From a virus (taxonomy: Duplodnaviria; Heunggongvirae; Uroviricota; Caudoviricetes), in IMG/VR virus record IMGVR_UViG_3300037418_002962, positions 154,650-218,649 of that record: DNA of 64,000 bases, one strand, 5' to 3'. Below the pieces are notes generated by a model. It was given only the letters and a program-made list of their open reading frames with translations. It searched no databases and had not been told where the DNA came from. Of this stretch, positions 19,054 to 49,703 are shown piece by piece; the first letter of the stretch is position 1, and each line of letters begins with the position of its first letter. The translations under genes and the position numbers were made by a program.

Positions 19054-20118
19054 TCAATGATATATCTTACCTAGCTTATATGAGCCTTGAATATTTGAAA
19101 GTGGGCTATCTCTTCTTTTAACGTTAAGAGTTCCTAGGTGGATTTCATTACCTTCATGAGTAATTCCATTAAAATGGACACTGGTTCCACTATGAACAGG
19201 AATAATTGTCTTTACAGCACTCATAATTTTCTTATGAATTTTTACAGGATCTGAAATTTTTACAGTATCTCTTTCTGGATTATATCGCGCACGATAATGA
19301 GTATAAGTATGTTCCCTGTCAACCGTGGATAGATTTGAGATTGTTTTCCTTAATCGTTTCTGATGGTTTTCATGAGTCTCGTTTTCTGCTCTCTTCAGTC
19401 CTCTATGATAGATTTTGGTTATTTTTGTTGTGGCCTTGACACTTTCATCTTGGATCTTCTGAGAGATTTCTGAATCTTTAGGAAGAGACTTGAATATGGC
19501 TCTGGCTTTGTCTCTGCTTGGTTCCTTGATTATCTTGTGAATTTTTTCGTTAGATTTATTTGATATTTCCTGTAATGTACCATTATGGTCATTAATATGT
19601 TTCTCTAGATTTTTAAGTCCTGGTCCAGACTCTGTAGGAATTCTAGAAGAATATTTCAGAGAGATGCCATGATGATTTACCTGTCCATTTTTTGGATGAT
19701 GAGTAATAACAATATCTGCATTACTCTTGGAGGATTTATCTTCTGTTCCATAATTATCCATCAATTTCTTATAATCTGTTGGATTTGATGCCCATGCCAC
19801 AGATGTTTCATGATGGTTTATATGGTATTTCTCTTTGTGCTCAATTCCTTGATGGCCTGAATCATGAAGAGTTTTTAAAATCTGTTGAGCAGTCTTTTCT
19901 GCTCCATGATTTATTTTATGATATTCATCTGGAGGAATTTTGCTTTTCAATTCATCATGGACTTCTTTAGGAGTCTTATTATTTTCTCTAAAGATATTGG
20001 GGAAATGTCCTTCTGGATGCATGTGTCTCGCAACCATAATTTCGAACAATTTCCCCTTAGGATCTCGTAATGAATGACTTGATGCTTCTGTTATTAAAAA
20101 TTGGTTAAATTCTAACAA
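19054..20118 (-). CDS. PD-(D/E)xK-like nuclease with internal-protein-like N-terminus
   Basis: KGKLFE...ADIV...GISLKY pattern; N-terminus MLEFNQFLITEA. Confidence 0.5.
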   Translation of the reverse strand: MLEFNQFLITEASSHSLRDPKGKLFEIMVARHMHPEGHFPNIFRENNKTPKEVHDELKSKIPPDEYHKINHGAEKTAQQILKTLHDSGHQGIEHKEKYHINHHETSVAWASNPTDYKKLMDNYGTEDKSSKSNADIVITHHPKNGQVNHHGISLKYSSRIPTESGPGLKNLEKHINDHNGTLQEISNKSNEKIHKIIKEPSRDKARAIFKSLPKDSEISQKIQDESVKATTKITKIYHRGLKRAENETHENHQKRLRKTISNLSTVDREHTYTHYRARYNPERDTVKISDPVKIHKKIMSAVKTIIPVHSGTSVHFNGITHEGNEIHLGTLNVKRRDSPLSNIQGSYKLGKIYH

Positions 20119-26302: not shown

Positions 26303-27400
26303 TTAATTAAACCATTTACTTAAATCAGATTTCTTTTCACATTTCCAGCCAATAGCATCCGTGATAGACCTAATTGGTTTCAGGAACCCCTTTTCAAGTA
26401 AAGCATATTTATCAATGTAATCGTCAAGTTTTAGCTCTTTTGGAATATTTCTTCCAGGAAATGAAATAATAGTGGAAAATATTGGATTAGGGTCAGTCAG
26501 ATAAACGAACTTAATCTTATCCCCATCATTAATTTCTGGATATTTATCATCAATTCCTCTTGACTTCAAGAGAGCATTGTAAATCAGAGATCCTTTTACT
26601 TGTGCTGGAGTTCCTTTTGAATATATGGTCTCTGAGTTCCCATATTTCTTCATACCATTTATGCCTTTAGGAAAAGCAATTTCATTAATAGGGAAAACCT
26701 TTGTCTTAAATTCCTCAACGAAATCAATAAGATCCTTTTCTTCCTTATTCATAATGATATTTACAGCTTCTTTAATACCTTTCCTATAAGCTGCTGGTGT
26801 AGAAGACCTTTGAGATTCCAATCCCTTAATAATCAATTTTGGTGTAGGATATCGTAAGCCTTCCTTATCGAATACATTAAGAGCATAATGTTTTTTCCCT
26901 GTCCATATCCCTTTATTTGCAACTATATCTCTGCCCATCTTGATTTTCTTTTCAAAATAGCCTGTATAATCTGAAAATTCGTCAAAAGACTTGGCGATTA
27001 CTTTATCAAGTTTCTGATCACAAAGATTACAAATGAACTCAACAATCTCTTCGTCTGGTGTTCCTTCTGGGAAAATCTTTTCAATCAAAGGATTGAGAGT
27101 TAGCAAATTAGAATCAGTATCAATACCAATGATATACTCAAAATCTACTGTTCCAATTGCTTTATTTAAATATTCGTTAAGGTCTTTCTGGACCCATTGA
27201 ATAGCAACCTGTCCTGTCTTGGTAATCGATTCTCCAAGTCTGATATCAACCCAACGCATATAGGCATTCGTTAAGGCACCAAAAAGAGAGTTAGCAAGAA
27301 TTTTACTTGACTGCCTCTGAACACCAAATTTTGATACTTCATTGTAAATTTTTAAATATAAAGCCTCTAATTCATCATCAGATAATATACTATAATCCAT
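26303..27400 (-). CDS. gp43: family B DNA polymerase, C-terminal subunit (gp43B)
   Basis: KILANSLFG (motif B), IDTDS (motif C), KKHYAL, KGLESQRSSTP. Confidence 0.92.
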   Translation of the reverse strand: MDYSILSDDELEALYLKIYNEVSKFGVQRQSSKILANSLFGALTNAYMRWVDIRLGESITKTGQVAIQWVQKDLNEYLNKAIGTVDFEYIIGIDTDSNLLTLNPLIEKIFPEGTPDEEIVEFICNLCDQKLDKVIAKSFDEFSDYTGYFEKKIKMGRDIVANKGIWTGKKHYALNVFDKEGLRYPTPKLIIKGLESQRSSTPAAYRKGIKEAVNIIMNKEEKDLIDFVEEFKTKVFPINEIAFPKGINGMKKYGNSETIYSKGTPAQVKGSLIYNALLKSRGIDDKYPEINDGDKIKFVYLTDPNPIFSTIISFPGRNIPKELKLDDYIDKYALLEKGFLKPIRSITDAIGWKCEKKSDLSKWFN

Positions 27401-28905
27401 TAAAACCTTTCTTCTCTAATTTTCAATCCTCTTTTTTTCATTTCTTGTTCGATAAGGAGTAATTCTTTTTCTTTTATCTTCTTTTCTGCATCAGCAGAGT
27501 TTTTCAATTGCATTACTTCCTTAATAACTTCTGGAATAAATCCAGATCCATCCTTTTTGTAAGTATAGCCATTGGCAGTTACACATACATCATTTTCTTC
27601 AAGGAATTGTCTAATTTGTTCATCATTGAGAATCCCTGCAAGGCAAGAATCGACATCAACACCAGAAACAAATTCAAAGAGTTTTTCAGGAGAAATATTA
27701 TACTGAATAATTAAGCTTGGGTAAAGGCTCGATACGTCATAAGTAACAACCCATTTATACATCCCTTCCTTAACTTCTTTTACATATCCTCCAGCAAAAG
27801 TATCATCCCGAGCCTCAAATTTTTTGGGAGGAACACAAATATTTCTATCCATCAGATAACGATGAATGATCATATCCCAAATTCTAACAGTACCCAGAAG
27901 ATCCGCAAAATTGCATTTAGCATAATAAGTAACCATTATGCAAAGAGAAATAAATTGCCTTTTTTCTTCTAGCCTATCAACTAGTTCAGTATCCAGAATG
28001 TTATAATCAACAAATTTTTGATAATCTTTTTCTTCCAACTCATCAAGAGTTTCATATTCAGAATAATTTAGCTTGCCAGTATCCAGTTCATAATTGGCAA
28101 CATGCTCTAGAGAATAATCTTCTTGTGGAGTATGGGAAAATTTCTTATACAAATCTTGATAATCAAGTTGTGCCCTGCCATAAATCAATTTTTCAATTCT
28201 TGTACGCCCTGTTTTATCAGTCTTTTCAACATCCTCTACAATTCCCCATGGAGACAGAGAATTAGCAGCAGATTCCCCAAGAACTCGTTTTAATCTATTA
28301 TGAATATACGTAATATCGAATTGATTCGAATTCCATCCGGTAATAATATCAAGATCGCATTCAGGAGACTTCCAGAATTCTAGGAATTTCCATAGCATAT
28401 CTCTTTCATCTTTACAATGAAAGAAAGTAACATTTGATTTTTTTGGGATGTATTTTTTATAACCAAAAGTATAGGCATGACCATTTTTTCTAATGGTGAT
28501 TAGAGTTATCTCTTTTTCTGCAGTTACAGCTTTTGCGTATGGTCCTTCTCCCTTTCGAGTTTCAATATCGATGGTTCCTCTACTAATAATAGATTCATCG
28601 TATTGAATTTTTCCGGGAAATTCATCATAGATATAAAGATAATTATATTGATTTAATCCATGAATTTCGTAATTCTCAACGTCTCCATATTCTTGAATGA
28701 ATTTAGAAGCCTCTGACATTTTGTCAAAGTATCTTTTAATGAAATGCTTGCCATGAATATTTCTATGAGTTCCTTCCTGTCCTAATGGAACAGGAACAAA
28801 GAGATAGGGATTATAATATTCCTTTAATTCAAATCTCTTACCGTCTTCATAACCCCTTATTAATAAGTAGTTTCTATTTCTTTCTACGCTTGTATAAAAC
28901 CTCAT
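27400..28905 (-). CDS. gp43: family B DNA polymerase, N-terminal exonuclease/palm subunit (gp43A)
   Basis: DIET, TGWNSNQFDITY, YNILD exonuclease motifs; GGYV, DVSSLYPS motif A. Confidence 0.92.
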   Translation of the reverse strand: MRFYTSVERNRNYLLIRGYEDGKRFELKEYYNPYLFVPVPLGQEGTHRNIHGKHFIKRYFDKMSEASKFIQEYGDVENYEIHGLNQYNYLYIYDEFPGKIQYDESIISRGTIDIETRKGEGPYAKAVTAEKEITLITIRKNGHAYTFGYKKYIPKKSNVTFFHCKDERDMLWKFLEFWKSPECDLDIITGWNSNQFDITYIHNRLKRVLGESAANSLSPWGIVEDVEKTDKTGRTRIEKLIYGRAQLDYQDLYKKFSHTPQEDYSLEHVANYELDTGKLNYSEYETLDELEEKDYQKFVDYNILDTELVDRLEEKRQFISLCIMVTYYAKCNFADLLGTVRIWDMIIHRYLMDRNICVPPKKFEARDDTFAGGYVKEVKEGMYKWVVTYDVSSLYPSLIIQYNISPEKLFEFVSGVDVDSCLAGILNDEQIRQFLEENDVCVTANGYTYKKDGSGFIPEVIKEVMQLKNSADAEKKIKEKELLLIEQEMKKRGLKIREERF

Positions 28906-33830: not shown

Positions 33831-34571
33831 ATGCATACGTACCAGGAAATTTTACAAACAAAAACAATCTTAGAATCTTACAAATCAAGAGAATCAGTAC
33901 CTTTGGTTTGTAACCACTGTCATTCTGTTTATTACAAACCAAAAAACAGGATTATGGATGCCCTGAGGCATAACCTCACAAAAAATTTTTGTACAAAACA
34001 ATGTTCCAGTAAATTTAAAATTGTAGGTAAATATATGGAATGTTTGAACTGTCAAAAAGAAATCTTCAAATGTGACTATGAAACAAAGAAAACAAAAAGA
34101 AGTTTTTGCTCAAAATCCTGTGCAGGAACGTATAATAACAAACACAAAACTCATGGAACTAGAAGATCAAAATTAGAAAAATGGCTAGAGACAGAACTAA
34201 AAAGGTTATATCCAAACCTTGAAATCCATTTCAATCGTAAAGATGCGATAGACTCTGAACTAGACATTTATATTCCTTCTCTTAAGTTAGCATTTGAACT
34301 TAATGGCATCTTTCATTACGAACCGATTTATGGTAAAGAAAAATTAGAGAAAATTAGAAATAACGATAACAATAAATTTATGCTGTGCCAACTTAAAAAT
34401 ATTTCTTTATGTATTATAGATACATCAGGACAAAAATATTTCAAAGAGACAACCTCTCAAAAATATCTTGATATAATAAAAAATATAATAAAAATCAGGC
34501 ACTTAGCGGGTCATAGAGGACTCGAACCTCTGACCTATCGCTTAGAAGGCGATTGCTCTAAATCCTACTGA
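33831..34571 (+). CDS. Cys-repeat + Vsr-like endonuclease, copy 4 (no leader; C-terminus runs antisense through tRNA-Arg)
   Basis: MHTYQE..YKSRESVPLVCNHC; RSKLEKWLE; ELDIYIPSLKLAFELNGIFHY. Confidence 0.75.
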   Translation: MHTYQEILQTKTILESYKSRESVPLVCNHCHSVYYKPKNRIMDALRHNLTKNFCTKQCSSKFKIVGKYMECLNCQKEIFKCDYETKKTKRSFCSKSCAGTYNNKHKTHGTRRSKLEKWLETELKRLYPNLEIHFNRKDAIDSELDIYIPSLKLAFELNGIFHYEPIYGKEKLEKIRNNDNNKFMLCQLKNISLCIIDTSGQKYFKETTSQKYLDIIKNIIKIRHLAGHRGLEPLTYRLEGDCSKSY

Positions 34572-34582
34572 GCTAATGACCC
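34507..34582 (-). tRNA. tRNA-Arg(UCU), no encoded CCA
   Basis: GGGTCAT/ATGACCC acceptor, ATCGC-CTTCTAA-GCGAT anticodon arm, GGTTCGAGTCC T arm; followed by CTA. Confidence 0.9.
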
Positions 34583-34601
34583 GCTAAGTGCCCGAATCGC
34601 T

Positions 34602-39296: not shown

Positions 39297-39507
39297 AATG
39301 GCAGAGAAATTGTCACATAATGCTAAAGTTATACTTGCAAGCGAATATAATAGCCGAGAAGAAGAACTTGAACATAATATAAAGATGATTGAGAAGGATA
39401 TTTTAGTCAAAGAGCAAGAGATAGATCGTCTAAAGACAGATCTCGATATTGCTAAGAAATATCTAAAATGGCATCAAGCAGTTCCAGATTCTGTAATATT
39501 TTCTTGA
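39277..39507 (+). CDS. small coiled-coil protein
   Basis: 76-aa ORF. Confidence 0.5.
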   Translation: MKKLEIKMAEKLSHNAKVILASEYNSREEELEHNIKMIEKDILVKEQEIDRLKTDLDIAKKYLKWHQAVPDSVIFS

Positions 39508-39534
39508 CATTACCTTGAAGAATTAGTATAAATA
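39504..39534 (+). promoter_or_regulatory. overlapping sigma70 and T4 late promoter for tRNA-Asn/Gln
   Basis: TTGACA-17nt-TATAAATA. Confidence 0.75.
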
Positions 39535-39550
39535 CTTGGCTGTTCTTAGC

Positions 39551-39623
39551 TCGCTTGTAGCTCAACTGGTAGAGCACTCGGCTGTTAACCGGGTGGTTGT
39601 AGGTTCGAATCCTACCGGGCGAG
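39551..39623 (+). tRNA. tRNA-Asn(GUU), no encoded CCA
   Basis: TCGCTTG/CGGGCGA acceptor, CTCGG-CTGTTAA-CCGGG, GTAGGTTCGAATCCTAC; followed by CTA. Confidence 0.9.
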
Positions 39624-39640
39624 CTAAGAACAGCCTTTAT

Positions 39641-39712
39641 TTGAGGATCGTCTAATTGGTAGGACCTGAGATTCTGGTTCTCATTATCTAGGTTCGAGTC
39701 CTAGTCCTCAAT
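39641..39712 (+). tRNA. tRNA-Gln(CUG), no encoded CCA
   Basis: TTGAGGA/TCCTCAA acceptor, TGAGA-TTCTGGT-TCTCA, CTAGGTTCGAGTCCTAG; followed by CTA. Confidence 0.85.
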
Positions 39713-40343
39713 CTACAGAATAAACTGTATCGGCATAAGATTGGCCACGGACATGATATCCTTCTGGTGCTAAAAGGTCTTTAATAAAATCATTGCCATT
39801 CTCACAAGAGATTACAGGCTTGAATTTTTTGATGGTGTTCATTGCACCTAGTAGAATGGAACTTTCGAAGCCCTCAACATCTAATTGTATAAAATCCAAA
39901 TCGTCAAGATCCAATGAATCTATAGTGATCATTGGAATTTTGCCTTTTGTATTAGTATTTACTCTGTTCATTCCTAGGTTGTCCTGAGAAACAATATCAA
40001 GACTGACCAATCCTGTAGTTTCTCCAAGACAGGCATTAAGCTTGAAAACGTTCTCTGTCTGGCAATTCAGAACGAAACAATGAAATGAAAGCGAGTAGGG
40101 TTCAAATGAATAAACCCTCTTAAACATTTCACTGAAAATCTTTGGATACATTCCGCAAGCTGCTCCAGCAGACAAACAAACATCATACTTCTTAATATAT
40201 TTTGTCCATAATTCAAGATGACTCGGAAGATTCATTAATGGTCCAGAGTAAACTCCTTCATCTTGTATAGGCCAATGAAATTCATATTCTTTATTATTAA
40301 TTATGGCCTTGCGAATTTCTAAAAGATTATCAAAATTTTCCAT
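39708..40343 (-). CDS. FkbM-family SAM methyltransferase
   Basis: SAGAACG, VYSFEP, ITIDSLDLDDLDFIQLDVEGFE..IL.GA..TI.K.KPVI..E. Confidence 0.85.
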   Translation of the reverse strand: MENFDNLLEIRKAIINNKEYEFHWPIQDEGVYSGPLMNLPSHLELWTKYIKKYDVCLSAGAACGMYPKIFSEMFKRVYSFEPYSLSFHCFVLNCQTENVFKLNACLGETTGLVSLDIVSQDNLGMNRVNTNTKGKIPMITIDSLDLDDLDFIQLDVEGFESSILLGAMNTIKKFKPVISCENGNDFIKDLLAPEGYHVRGQSYADTVYSVD

Positions 40344-40424: not shown

Positions 40425-41369
40425 ATGTTTTATTTATACAAAATTCAAAATACTATTAATAATAAAATTTATATTGGTCAAACTATAAATTTCAGAAATA
40501 GGATGATTAGACACAAATCCACATCAGAAAACAAAAACGAGCCTTTATATGAATCATATCTTTATAGATCTATAAGAAAACATAAATGGGAAAATTTTTC
40601 TAAAGAAATTATTGACACAGCTAAAAATCAAGAAGAAGCAAATGAAAAAGAAGAATATTATATAGAAAAATATAATAGCTATAATAATGGATATAATTGT
40701 ACTAAAGGAGGAAACTGTAGAGCAATAAAAACACAAAAAGAATTAGAACATCAAATTAAAATTCAATCTAAGAATTTTTGGAAAATTACATTTCCAAATA
40801 AAAATGTTGTAATTATTAATTCATTGGAAGATTTTTCTAGAAAAAATAATCTAGATGCTAATGGTTTAAGAAAGGTTGCCAAATCAAAAATAAAACATCA
40901 TAGAGGATTTTTATGCCAGAAATTAATAACTATTAAAGAGATTCCATTAAACGAAAAAGAAGATTTATTAATAAAAATAAATAAAATTGATAATATTACT
41001 CAAGAACAACTATTTGAAATTAGTAATGGACATTTGAGTTTTGATTTAAATTTTAAATATAAGGACAACTTATTTGATCCAAAATCTGATTTTTGGGAAA
41101 TAATTTTTCCTACAAACGAAGTTAAATATGTACTCAGTTTAGATAAATTTTGCAAAGAAAATAATCTGATTCCAGAATCGATGAGGCTAGTCAACAAAGG
41201 AGAAATAAAACATCATCATAATTATAAATGTAAAAAGTTAAATAAAACAGTATCAAGAATTAATGTGAATGATATAAAAGAAATAATATCTAACTTACAA
41301 AATAATAATGGAATAAAATTAACTGAAGAACAATTATTCTCTTATTCAAAAGGATACTTAGAGTTTTAA
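40425..41369 (+). CDS. GIY-YIG homing endonuclease with duplicated C-terminal DNA-binding module
   Basis: YLYKIQNTINNKIYIGQT, R...H, LYRSIRKH.WENF, E.YYI..YNS...GYN.T.GG; FW.I.FP...L..F...NNL...KHH repeated twice. Confidence 0.85.
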   Translation: MFYLYKIQNTINNKIYIGQTINFRNRMIRHKSTSENKNEPLYESYLYRSIRKHKWENFSKEIIDTAKNQEEANEKEEYYIEKYNSYNNGYNCTKGGNCRAIKTQKELEHQIKIQSKNFWKITFPNKNVVIINSLEDFSRKNNLDANGLRKVAKSKIKHHRGFLCQKLITIKEIPLNEKEDLLIKINKIDNITQEQLFEISNGHLSFDLNFKYKDNLFDPKSDFWEIIFPTNEVKYVLSLDKFCKENNLIPESMRLVNKGEIKHHHNYKCKKLNKTVSRINVNDIKEIISNLQNNNGIKLTEEQLFSYSKGYLEF

Positions 41370-47273: not shown

Positions 47274-47706
47274 TAATCATCTCCTTTACTGTCTTTGATG
47301 CCATGGCGGGATTGAGAGCAGTCCCATATTTAGACTTAAGCTTTCCCATAATCATTCCCATATCCTTAATATTAAGTTCTTTTCCTGGAAATGACTCTTT
47401 AATAAAAGAGATAATTTCTTCCTCAGTAATTTCTACAGGAAGATATTTCTTTAGGATGGAAATTTCAGCTTCTTGACTGCTTATATCACGTTTCATGCCA
47501 GAAAGCAAGGTGATATTTTCTTCAAGATTTTTAATGAACTTGCGAATTACCTTAATGGCATCTTCATCAACTGCAGGACGATTACCATCATTTTTTGCTG
47601 AGATATTAATTTCGCCCAGAAGGGCAGAAAGAATTCCTCTTAGATTTGAATCCTTATTGCGAAGCGCATTGTTGAATTCTGTTTCAATATTTTGCAGAAT
47701 TGTCAT
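47266..47706 (-). CDS. GatB/YqeY-domain protein
   Basis: E.SILKKYLP.....EEI, KDMGMIMGKLK..YG. Confidence 0.8.
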   Translation of the reverse strand: MTILQNIETEFNNALRNKDSNLRGILSALLGEINISAKNDGNRPAVDEDAIKVIRKFIKNLEENITLLSGMKRDISSQEAEISILKKYLPVEITEEEIISFIKESFPGKELNIKDMGMIMGKLKSKYGTALNPAMASKTVKEMING

Positions 47707-48041
47707 TTATTATAATCCTCTTCATTTTCATAAAATACCCAATTCTCAGAGCATAGGTCGCAGAAATTATACCAATTGGGCCATGAATGAATGTATGGTC
47801 TATCAGGAGCAGAAAGCCATGCTAAATTAAACCACCGGGAAAGTTCTTTTCCATTATATTCTCTCTTCAAATTTTCTAGAAGTTCTCCTAAAGAAATATC
47901 ATGCAAATATGGTTCCTGATATGCTCCATCTGGATATTCACAACTTCTAAGTTCTGCACCACAATTACTAAAAATTTCTAGAATATCAGGCCAGATCCTT
48001 TCACAAAGGTCCCACCAATCTTGTTCATTATTAATTGTCAT
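47703..48041 (-). CDS. hypothetical protein
   Basis: AW..APD.PYIHSWP.W...CDLCSE pattern. Confidence 0.6.
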   Translation of the reverse strand: MTINNEQDWWDLCERIWPDILEIFSNCGAELRSCEYPDGAYQEPYLHDISLGELLENLKREYNGKELSRWFNLAWLSAPDRPYIHSWPNWYNFCDLCSENWVFYENEEDYNK

Positions 48042-48067
48042 TTAATCTCCTATCCAAATATTATAAT

Positions 48068-48139
48068 TGGCTCCCGCGGCTGGACTTGAACCAATATCGC
48101 CCTGCACAATCAGGGGCTTTAATCTTAAGCTACACGGGA
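48068..48139 (-). tRNA. tRNA-like element with 6-nt anticodon loop (His-like GTG), encoded CCA
   Basis: TCCCGTG/CGCGGGA-G-CCA, D arm GCTT/AAGC, CCCTG-ATTGTG-CAGGG, TTCAAGT T loop. Confidence 0.6.
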
Positions 48140-48149
48140 TTAAAAAATT

Positions 48150-48390
48150 GGAAGGTTTTGCCAGTCCTTGGACTTCCATGCACGAATGAATCCGACATCT
48201 ATTCACCCGTTCTGGGTCACGATCCCATCTGCACCTTCCTGGAGACTATTCAGGTCTATCTCCATATTTTCTCAGATTATAATTTGCGGTATACGATCCT
48301 CACGGTTCAACCGATTATCTTCCCATGCAAATTATAATCACCAACTAGTTAACATCGCTAGGTACTTTATGCCAATCTAGAATAGCTTCA
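48150..48390 (-). ncRNA. candidate highly structured ncRNA upstream of the tRNA-like element
   Basis: No credible ORF; GGAAGGT/ACCTTCC closes a multibranch; 13-bp perfect IR at 48275-48287/48327-48339; strand assigned from context. Confidence 0.45.
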
Positions 48391-48407
48391 AGTACGAGAA
48401 AATTTCA

Positions 48408-48773
48408 CTATCCTTTCCAAACTGGCAAAACCTTAGCATTTATAGGAATAACATATTGTTTTGCCAGCAATTTAATAAAGTTGTCTACCTTCTTATCCAA
48501 ACGATTCTTGGCATTTTTTAAACACTGTTCAGGATCATTTTCAAAATATATCCATTCAAAAACCGCTTCTGGATAAACCTTCTTGATCCTATCTTCCACA
48601 TCGAATTTATTAACATGGCATAGATGAGGATCACATATAATGAAATCGTTATCCATACCTTCAAGATCACTCAATGATTGTGGGTCATCCACAATTTTCC
48701 GACCATTAGCAATGGTTTCTGCATAATGAGTCTTTCCAGAAGCTGGAAGACCAACAATCATTGTTACTTTCAT
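48408..48773 (-). CDS. small P-loop kinase (AAA_33/PNK-like)
   Basis: MIVGLPASGKTHYA, IVDD, WIYFENDPEQCLKN. Confidence 0.7.
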   Translation of the reverse strand: MKVTMIVGLPASGKTHYAETIANGRKIVDDPQSLSDLEGMDNDFIICDPHLCHVNKFDVEDRIKKVYPEAVFEWIYFENDPEQCLKNAKNRLDKKVDNFIKLLAKQYVIPINAKVLPVWKG

Positions 48774-48783
48774 AATAACTATA

Positions 48784-49143
48784 TTAGTCTGTAACTAACC
48801 CAATGTCAATAAGATAATTGAGAAGAACATCCTTTGAAATGGACTTTACACGGTAATTCGTATAATTTCCATAATATTCTGGTTCATAATCTTCTTTACT
48901 ATCAACCAGAGTAAGAAGCTTCTTATATGCAAAGTATGGCATAAGAGGAAAATATTTCTGGAGAAATTCGTCCAGGGGAGTTTCTTCAGGCTCTTCCTCA
49001 CTGCCCATATAGCTAGGCTTATCTCCCCAACAGCTACCGCCAGACATTCCACCAGTAACCCATCTCCAAGAAATAACATCTTCCCTGAGATAATATTCCT
49101 TTTTATAATCTTTCCAGATTTCTTCAAATTCAGTCTTATTCAC
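48784..49143 (-). CDS. hypothetical protein
   Basis: W.TGGMSGGSCWG...EYYGNYT pattern. Confidence 0.6.
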   Translation of the reverse strand: MNKTEFEEIWKDYKKEYYLREDVISWRWVTGGMSGGSCWGDKPSYMGSEEEPEETPLDEFLQKYFPLMPYFAYKKLLTLVDSKEDYEPEYYGNYTNYRVKSISKDVLLNYLIDIGLVTD

Positions 49144-49162
49144 AATCTATCTCCTTTTAAAT

Positions 49163-49235
49163 TGGCTGCCCCGTGGCTGGACTTGAAACCAACATCTCTC
49201 AGGATCTCTGAGCCTTTAATCTTAAATACACGGGA
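49163..49235 (-). tRNA. degenerate tRNA-like element, paralog of 48068-48139
   Basis: TCCCGTGTA..TTAAGATTAAAG, CTCAG-AGATC-CTGAG (5-nt loop), TTCAAGTCCAGCCACGGGG..CCA. Confidence 0.5.
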
Positions 49236-49247
49236 TAAAGCCTTATT

Positions 49248-49445
49248 TTATAAATCCGCCCAAGAAGCCTTCACAACCTTGAAACCCTTGTGATGGGTAC
49301 GCTTGCCAAGGGAAACGTTCTGCATACTACCAGCATGAAGCTTGTTACGCTTGCAGAAGGCATTCAGACCAAGGACAAACTCAACCTCACCATTAGGATG
49401 AGTGACATAATAGGGCTTAGGATCATGGATAACAGACGAATTCAT
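49248..49445 (-). CDS. stand-alone NUMOD1-like DNA-binding module
   Basis: YYVTHPNGEVEFVLGLNAFCKRNKLHAGSMQNVSLGKRTHHKGFKV aligns with the two C-terminal repeats of the 40425 GIY-YIG protein; start MNSS after GAAGGA. Confidence 0.65.
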   Translation of the reverse strand: MNSSVIHDPKPYYVTHPNGEVEFVLGLNAFCKRNKLHAGSMQNVSLGKRTHHKGFKVVKASWADL

Positions 49446-49703
49446 TTTTAAATATCCTTCAATAAATGGGGTTAAATTAACGAGAAGCTTTCCAGGAAAC
49501 GCTCTGGATACCAAGCTTACTCCAAAGCTGCATATCACGAGAAGCATGATCTCCATCACGATAGCGCATAGTCCATGCACACTTACCGGGAATTTTGAAC
49601 TCAACGTAGGTAATCATTTTATTCTCCAGTGGTTTCAATTAACTATTAGATATTACCGATTATGTTCCATGCTGTCAATATCTTTTGAAAAATAATTTTT
49701 TGG

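Follow-up and report, generated by a model that had tools for sequence, protein, structure and literature searches.

A 13-bp leader-trailer helix around phage tRNA genes as a likely RNase III site and candidate RNase P-independent route to mature tRNA ends

The window analyzed here is a stretch of 64,000 nucleotides and forms part of a virus record of 243,684 bp that is 97% complete. The phage carries T4-like replication genes (helicase, family B polymerase, UvsX, and clamp loader), whereby the helicase shows only 52% identity to its nearest cultured match. Close relatives were not found, with the helicase match of 52% as the best one and a scan with the CCA-adding enzyme leading to one distant contig. 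The phage nucleotidyltransferase has its closest counterparts in phages of Agrobacterium, Brevundimonas, and Caulobacter, a hint that the host is an alphaproteobacterium. The family B DNA polymerase is laid out as two adjacent ORFs (501 and 365 aa; window 26303-28905, minus strand), and an ORF at about 234000-235500 of the genome (minus strand) presumably encodes a PrkA/YeaG-type AAA serine kinase, judged by eye. As the tRNA gene set of the genome we used the 10 Rfam matches; the output of ARAGORN with introns and a relaxed score was mostly noise. Seven of these 10 tRNA or tRNA-like genes encode CCA and have 0-1 flanking pairs each, while three read CTA, and two of these three, tRNA-Asn and tRNA-Arg, are enclosed by a helix of leader and trailer (Table 1). 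A tRNA-like gene with an encoded CCA and a 6-nt anticodon loop lies at window 48068-48139 (minus strand).

Table 1. Features of the tRNA-Asn and tRNA-Arg loci, numbered from the first letter of the window.
Feature	Position	Strand	Basis or remark
Candidate promoter TTGACA, 17 nt, TATAAA(TA)	39504..39534	+	sigma-70-like and T4-late-like; start expected near 39538-39539 (predicted)
5' arm of the tRNA-Asn extension helix (leader, -13 to -1)	39538..39550	+	sequence and folding
RNase III proximal box, leader strand CUUA (consensus CWUW), -6 to -3	39545..39548	+	consensus of PMC5141509; register test
tRNA-Asn(GUU), U1-A72, G73 at 39623, C74 at 39624	39551..39624	+	ARAGORN; Rfam 67.7 bits
Predicted cuts around tRNA-Asn	39550/39551 and 39624/39625	+	predicted
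3' arm (G73, C74, trailer); UAAG at 39625-39628 is the WAWG strand of the proximal box	39623..39635	+	
tRNA-Gln(CUG), 5 nt past the Asn helix, co-transcribed, without extension, CTA instead of CCA	39641..39713	+	
5-bp hairpin after tRNA-Gln, starting at tRNA position 75	39714-39729	+	
5' arm of the tRNA-Arg helix (leader), same proximal box CUUA, G-U pair at -11	34583..34595	-	
tRNA-Arg(UCU), G73 at 34507, C74 at 34506	34506..34582	-	ARAGORN, Rfam
Predicted cuts around tRNA-Arg	34583/34582 and 34506/34505	-	predicted
3' arm of the tRNA-Arg helix	34495..34507	-	other strand is the end of the homing-endonuclease-like ORF 33831-34571 (+)

As stated in the original prediction, the two arms at tRNA-Asn are exact reverse complements, which gives 13 Watson-Crick pairs from C-1:G73 outward and, together with the 7-bp acceptor stem (two of its pairs being G-U), a continuous helix of 20 bp. 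In the folding ensemble of the Asn+Gln precursor all 13 pairs have a probability of 1.0, the helix reaches z = -7.1 compared to shuffled sequences, and 13 perfect pairs in this register would arise by chance at any one of the 10 tRNA genes of the genome with a probability of about 5e-7. The tRNA itself is canonical by ARAGORN and Rfam RF00005, with a cloverleaf, the conserved D and T loop bases, and the anticodon GUU. The promoter that had been proposed upstream held up in part, since TTGACA (39504-39509) and TATAAA (39527-39532) are present at a spacing of 17 nt but a strict consensus scanner rejects the site because the last T is missing. TATAAA is the commonest -10 element following TTGAC[AT] and 17 nt in the source genome (7 sites), and we take TATAAATA in this promoter to be a T4-type late promoter as well. 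The downstream tRNA-Gln(CUG) has U73 and ends in CTA. A GIY-YIG-type homing endonuclease gene is located 700 nt from the Asn-Gln pair (window 40425-41369, plus strand), which recalls SegB of phage T4, a gene that also adjoins tRNA genes.

The helix around tRNA-Arg comprises 10 Watson-Crick pairs, or 13 pairs if one G-U is counted, with the stop codon of ORF 35045-34602 lying 19 nt ahead of the tRNA. The homing-endonuclease-like ORF on the other strand (PHROG 559, E 2e-13) ends with codons that overlap, in antisense, the tRNA-Arg trailer and the larger part of the tRNA body. Both tRNA-Asn and tRNA-Arg are the sole genes for their anticodons in the source genome and score as canonical tRNAs. The repeat CTTAGC...GCTAAG, which had been noticed around both tRNAs, occurs twice in the window and also twice in the whole genome, at Asn and Arg only, where 0.04 occurrences are expected in the window. 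This identity can be explained, since CUUA is one of the four CWUW boxes of RNase III, while the remaining two bases, G-2 and C-1, are the partners of C74 and of the G73 that both tRNAs need. Reading the 6-mer as a phage-specific tag does not hold: unrelated sequences are found in stems elsewhere, which keep only the RNase III boxes and G-2:C74. Likewise, CTA is not peculiar to the stem, as the stemless tRNA-Gln reads CTA too, position 75 is U or A, and stems of other phages have different letters here. Outside the window, at 19217-19270 of the genome, a gutted initiator-tRNA relic follows a TATAAATA promoter and has a third stem of the same type, with U-1:A73, G-2:C74, 10 of 11 pairs, and the proximal box CUGA (3/4).

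Pattern scans in which no more than the innermost 2-6 bases were fixed were run over viral contigs, metagenomes, and bacterial genomes. The flanks of the matches continue pairing to 11-17 bp with unrelated sequences, and in total at least 135 distinct leader-trailer stems were collected, at least 102 of them viral and in at least 84 viral loci; they stem from viral contigs, metagenomes, and three small bacterial genomes (two Parcubacteria or Patescibacteria). Among 12 cultured phages chosen irrespective of stems, the stem is present on tRNA-Asn in Aeromonas phage Aeh1 and Sinorhizobium phage Phosso and on tRNA-His in Vibrio phage KVP40. A feature restricted to Asn was rejected, as anticodon-blind scans yield Met, Pro, Arg, Ile, Phe, Trp, and Cys; counts by tRNA type are biased by the search patterns, which forced the innermost bases. 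Many viral tRNA-Met(CAU) and tRNA-Pro(UGG) genes have stems of near-perfect RNase III consensus (up to 14/14), and within stem-bearing clusters the neighboring tRNAs usually encode CCA and are stemless. The Aeromonas phage orthologues of tRNA-Asn in PX29, phiWae14, and 44RR2.8t keep the outer helix, whereby G73 is bulged in PX29 and 44RR2.8t and CCA is encoded inside the helix in phiWae14 and 44RR2.8t, while Ahp1 is without helix. These orthologues differ at the junction, and thus the stem geometry is not fixed. In phage tRNA-His genes (n = 5) U-1 is placed opposite C73, followed by a helix of 13-14 bp. A general trait of Patescibacteria was rejected as well, with a stem in only 1 of about 28 randomly drawn tRNA-Asn genes. 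In one Parcubacteria genome about 11 of the 43 tRNAs have leader-trailer helices, many of them mismatched near the junction and without conservation of C74, which probably represents a different, repeat-driven arrangement.

Among 1537 tRNA flanks, 94 distinct stems pass the threshold in register compared to 0-1 at shifted registers, a result that is partly built in by the search patterns, although unforced neighbors show the same register; of random leader-trailer pairings, 0.05% reach the threshold. Across stems, each position from -3 to -12 is paired in 91-99% of cases, with 81% at -13 and 52% at -14, from where pairing is near background. On the tRNA strand, G-U pairs outnumber A-C mismatches by 84 to 11. 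Since the sequences are unrelated, pairing ends at 13-14 bp, and G-U exceeds A-C, the stem is an RNA structure. G-2:C74 was found in 95 of 98 viral stems, a count biased at -1/-2 by the forced bases, and in 11 of 14 stems where the pair was not forced. A-U pairs make up 87% at -5 and 84% at -3.

The consensus for E. coli RNase III of Krinke and Wulff, as quoted in PMC4357697, is WNAGWGNNCWUNNN^NAWGNNCWCUNW. Therein, the proximal box CWUW/WAWG is located 2-5 bp and the distal box UU/AG 10-11 bp from the center of the cut, whereas the central two pairs are free (PMC5141509); the distal box is not conserved across species. A single set of proximal and distal box within 11 bp suffices to specify a site in vitro (PMC1540722), and the products have a 5'-phosphate, a 3'-OH, and a 2-nt 3' overhang (PMC3867540). 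With cuts at -1/+1 and 74/75, positions -6 to -3 of the stem become the proximal box and -12/-11 the distal box. For scoring we only considered 33 clustered stems whose bases from -4 outward were unforced by the search. In this register the fit to the consensus, which is that of E. coli, weak, and possibly not that of the host, amounted to 8.48/14, while the other ten registers (shifts of up to five pairs) gave 3.2-6.5/14. Permuted pairs gave 5.59 +/- 0.35 and none of 5000 permutations reached the observed score, whereby the permutation tests count clustered stems as independent. The Asn and Arg stems of the source phage each score 10/14 at the predicted register, which is their best. At never-forced positions of 59 clusters, distal-box letters occur in 144 of 236 cases compared to 81 +/- 7 after permutation (0/10,000), and the G-11:U83 wobble occurs 21 times where 4.7 +/- 1.9 are expected (0/10,000). 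The distal-box enrichment was replicated in the anticodon-blind stem set. Three Arg(UCU) stems fit other registers equally well or better, and two tRNA-His stems score better one base further outward, a shift that is required by the retained -1 nucleotide.

Regarding the individual elements of such a site, the helix extends 12 bp outward from the cut center in Asn and Arg and most often 13-14 bp in the family, so that the length of 11 bp is exceeded. Both stems carry CUUA/UAAG as proximal box and are free of a G-C antideterminant at box positions 2 and 4. The distal box AG/UU is absent from the Asn stem of the source phage (G-12/C-11) and half present in Arg (only G-U at -11). A second half-site was not found, as the acceptor stem is a regular helix for only 8 bp and has no box consensus; since one box set is sufficient in vitro, this limits the claim of a double cut and not the site itself. 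The idea of a dedicated processing signal gained support, and among the nucleases that had been offered the register fit singles out RNase III as the enzyme that would cleave here. A phage-encoded RNase III did not turn up: RNase III domains were found neither in the source genome (PF00636, PF14622) nor in the 28 phage records with stems that were searched, which leaves the host as the source of the enzyme in this model. Shielding from anticodon nucleases found no support, since the helix leaves the anticodon loop uncovered, whereas protection of the CCA end might come as an added benefit.

On the basis of these comparisons we consider it likely that the 13-bp leader-trailer helix is a site for host RNase III, whose staggered cut would free the tRNA ends without RNase P. 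Folding and comparison show that leader and trailer pair to a 13-bp helix stacked on the acceptor stem, and statistically this helix fits one half-site for a class 1 RNase III with its center between -2:74 and -1:73. The precursor folded in this way is presumably a poor substrate for RNase P, because two pairs at -1/-2 already slow the enzyme 13-fold (PMC9433436); continuous extensions hinder eukaryotic RNase P as well (PMC8457004). RNase III would bind the outer half-site and cut the leader strand between -1 and +1; provided that the acceptor stem occupies the second active site, it would also cut the trailer strand between 74 and 75, leaving a 2-nt 3' overhang. The second-strand cut is less certain, because the tRNA side is without a proximal box and regular for only 8 bp. 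The expected products are a 5'-phosphate at the mature 5' end, made without RNase P, and a 3'-OH end at G73-C74; alternatively, the leader strand alone might be cut and the 3' side be trimmed by exonucleases. At the Asn locus the cut would also release tRNA-Gln with a 16-nt leader for RNase P, and at the Arg locus it would lift the tRNA out of the mRNA of the ORF ending 19 nt upstream. A CCA-adding enzyme, for which there is a phage-encoded candidate, would then add C75-A76.

In the source genome this candidate is a gene of the CCA-adding family at genome position 47708 (385 aa; PF01743, E 9e-35; putative with respect to CCA versus poly(A) activity), whose product is 38% identical to the enzyme of Atu_ph07. 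Its presence and the CTA after G73 agree with a tRNA-Asn gene that does not encode CCA. A gene of this family was found in 15 of 28 stem-bearing records, a count that covers stem-bearing phages alone. Of 580 viral tRNA genes that have neither a stem nor an encoded CCA, 526 retain C74; this base is thus common in CCA-less phage tRNA genes anyway and consistent with the proposed route without proving it. Within 47639-49465 of the genome, the CCA-adding-family gene is followed, one gene later, by a 128-aa ORF that presumably encodes a PTH2-type peptidyl-tRNA hydrolase, as judged by eye.

Other explanations of the helix have to be weighed against this. An outer cut is the usual role of RNase III stalks (PMC4681348), and RNase III or another nuclease might cut further out here as well, upon which the leader melts and RNase P and 3' exonucleases finish the ends, as for the rRNA stalks of E. 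coli. The RNase III consensus is weak and the Asn stem of the source phage scores 8/14 at shifts of +3 to +5; however, the stems taken together show a sharp maximum of the fit at shift 0 (8.5 compared to 4.6-5.9 at +1 to +5), and an outer cut would push the distal box past the helix, which makes this reading unlikely. Cleavage could also be due to Mini-III, or to a phage double-strand RNase that escaped recognition, reading the central four pairs. Both strands at tRNA-Asn read AGC^U and thereby match the WSSW consensus of Mini-III (PMC5141509), an enzyme that makes the mature 23S rRNA ends directly, but WSSW fits Asn only and is broken by stems with G-2/U-1 or G+1. Moreover, Mini-III is indifferent to the distal box and to anything more than 5 bp away, while the stems show a strong enrichment of this box; Mini-III is an enzyme of Gram-positives and plastids, while cultured stem carriers infect Aeromonas and Sinorhizobium, and no RNase III domain was found in 29 phage records. 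We regard such a cutter as very unlikely.

Little probability is likewise assigned to the helix being a lock or decoy, which RNase III binds or cuts without yielding a working tRNA, or a stored precursor that hides its 3' end from tRNA-end toxins. The helix should block RNase P, Phosso carries a second, ordinary tRNA-Asn, some stem-bearing tRNAs are atypical, and the gutted initiator tRNA of the source genome keeps a similar stem, all of which would suit a lock. In contrast, the Asn and Arg genes have no substitute in this genome and are canonical, register and C74 fit a productive end, and the G-C at proximal position 4 that would permit binding without cutting is avoided in favor of A-U (84%). 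Still less probable is an intrinsic terminator with the tRNA as loop. Both helices of the source phage precede U-rich runs, but T per 8 nt after the 94 stems is not enriched (2.4 compared to 2.2), tRNA-Gln needs read-through, and the run behind Arg belongs to a coding sequence on the other strand; a terminator scanner finds none, and neither helix forms a short-loop G+C hairpin followed by a U run. Finally, the inverted repeat might be a relic at the DNA level without RNA function, left by template switching that extended a quasi-palindrome or by the ends of a mobile element, as homing-endonuclease-like genes adjoin both tRNAs and the Asn arms are perfectly complementary. The strand asymmetry of G-U over A-C largely refutes this, and the fixed length, the position-specific box letters, and arm sequences that are unrelated between phages also speak against a relic, which we hold to be extremely improbable.

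The cleavage by host RNase III preferred here has parallels in known systems. The T7 site R1.1 and its minimal version uR1.1 (PMC1540722) share with the phage stems the 11-bp half-site, CWUW/WAWG, the AG/UU enriched across the stem family, the free central dinucleotide, and the predicted 2-nt 3' overhang, but in the phage stems a tRNA acceptor stem takes the place of the other half, and the cut is predicted precisely at the mature tRNA end. The precursor stalks of 16S and 23S rRNA, cut by RNase III in E. coli and, for pre-23S rRNA of B. subtilis, by Mini-III (PMC3867540, PMC4681348), are likewise paired flanks of a stable RNA that receive a staggered cut, whereas the predicted phage substrate is a single tRNA whose 3' product needs CCA completion. 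On rRNA stalks class 1 RNase III normally leaves extra nucleotides, while Mini-III makes mature ends directly. In phage T4 the cut precedes tRNA-Gln by a few nucleotides, the 5' end is left to RNase P, and the site is not known to be an acceptor-stem extension. According to work cited in PMC4810235, host RNase III takes part in T4 tRNA maturation and thus acts on a phage tRNA precursor, as proposed for the phage stem; the same paper (PMC4810235) suggests RNase III for tRNA processing in chloroviruses. Extended acceptor stems that serve as RNase P substrates also pair leader with trailer, over 1-2 bp in E. coli (PMC9433436, PMC10731613) and with a bulge at -1 in yeast, human, and MALAT1 mascRNA (PMC8457004). 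These substrates are short or bulged at the cut so that RNase P can act, whereas the phage stems are continuous over 13 bp and carry RNase III boxes.

A literature search, with most subscription and older papers outside its scope, yielded no description of an acceptor-stem extension that sets both tRNA ends. Judged from the sequence comparisons, the element is real and conserved and probably represents an undescribed route of tRNA maturation. We lean slightly towards the view that this route is widespread in phages and some bacteria, with host RNase III making both ends and a CCA-adding enzyme completing the 3' end. The 5' ends of essentially all leader-bearing bacterial tRNAs are ascribed to RNase P. 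If the model is true, a second route would exist to the mature 5' end and, short of two bases, to the 3' end; it would occur across many phage lineages and serve many tRNA types (Asn, Met, Pro, Arg, Ile, Trp, Cys, and others). It would give phage CCA-adding enzymes a concrete job and allow a tRNA to be cut from an mRNA or a cluster in one step. Under a shortage of RNase P or single-strand nucleases, phages might in this way keep up the production of selected tRNAs, and the 13-bp architecture would provide a design rule for tRNA expression in bacteria.
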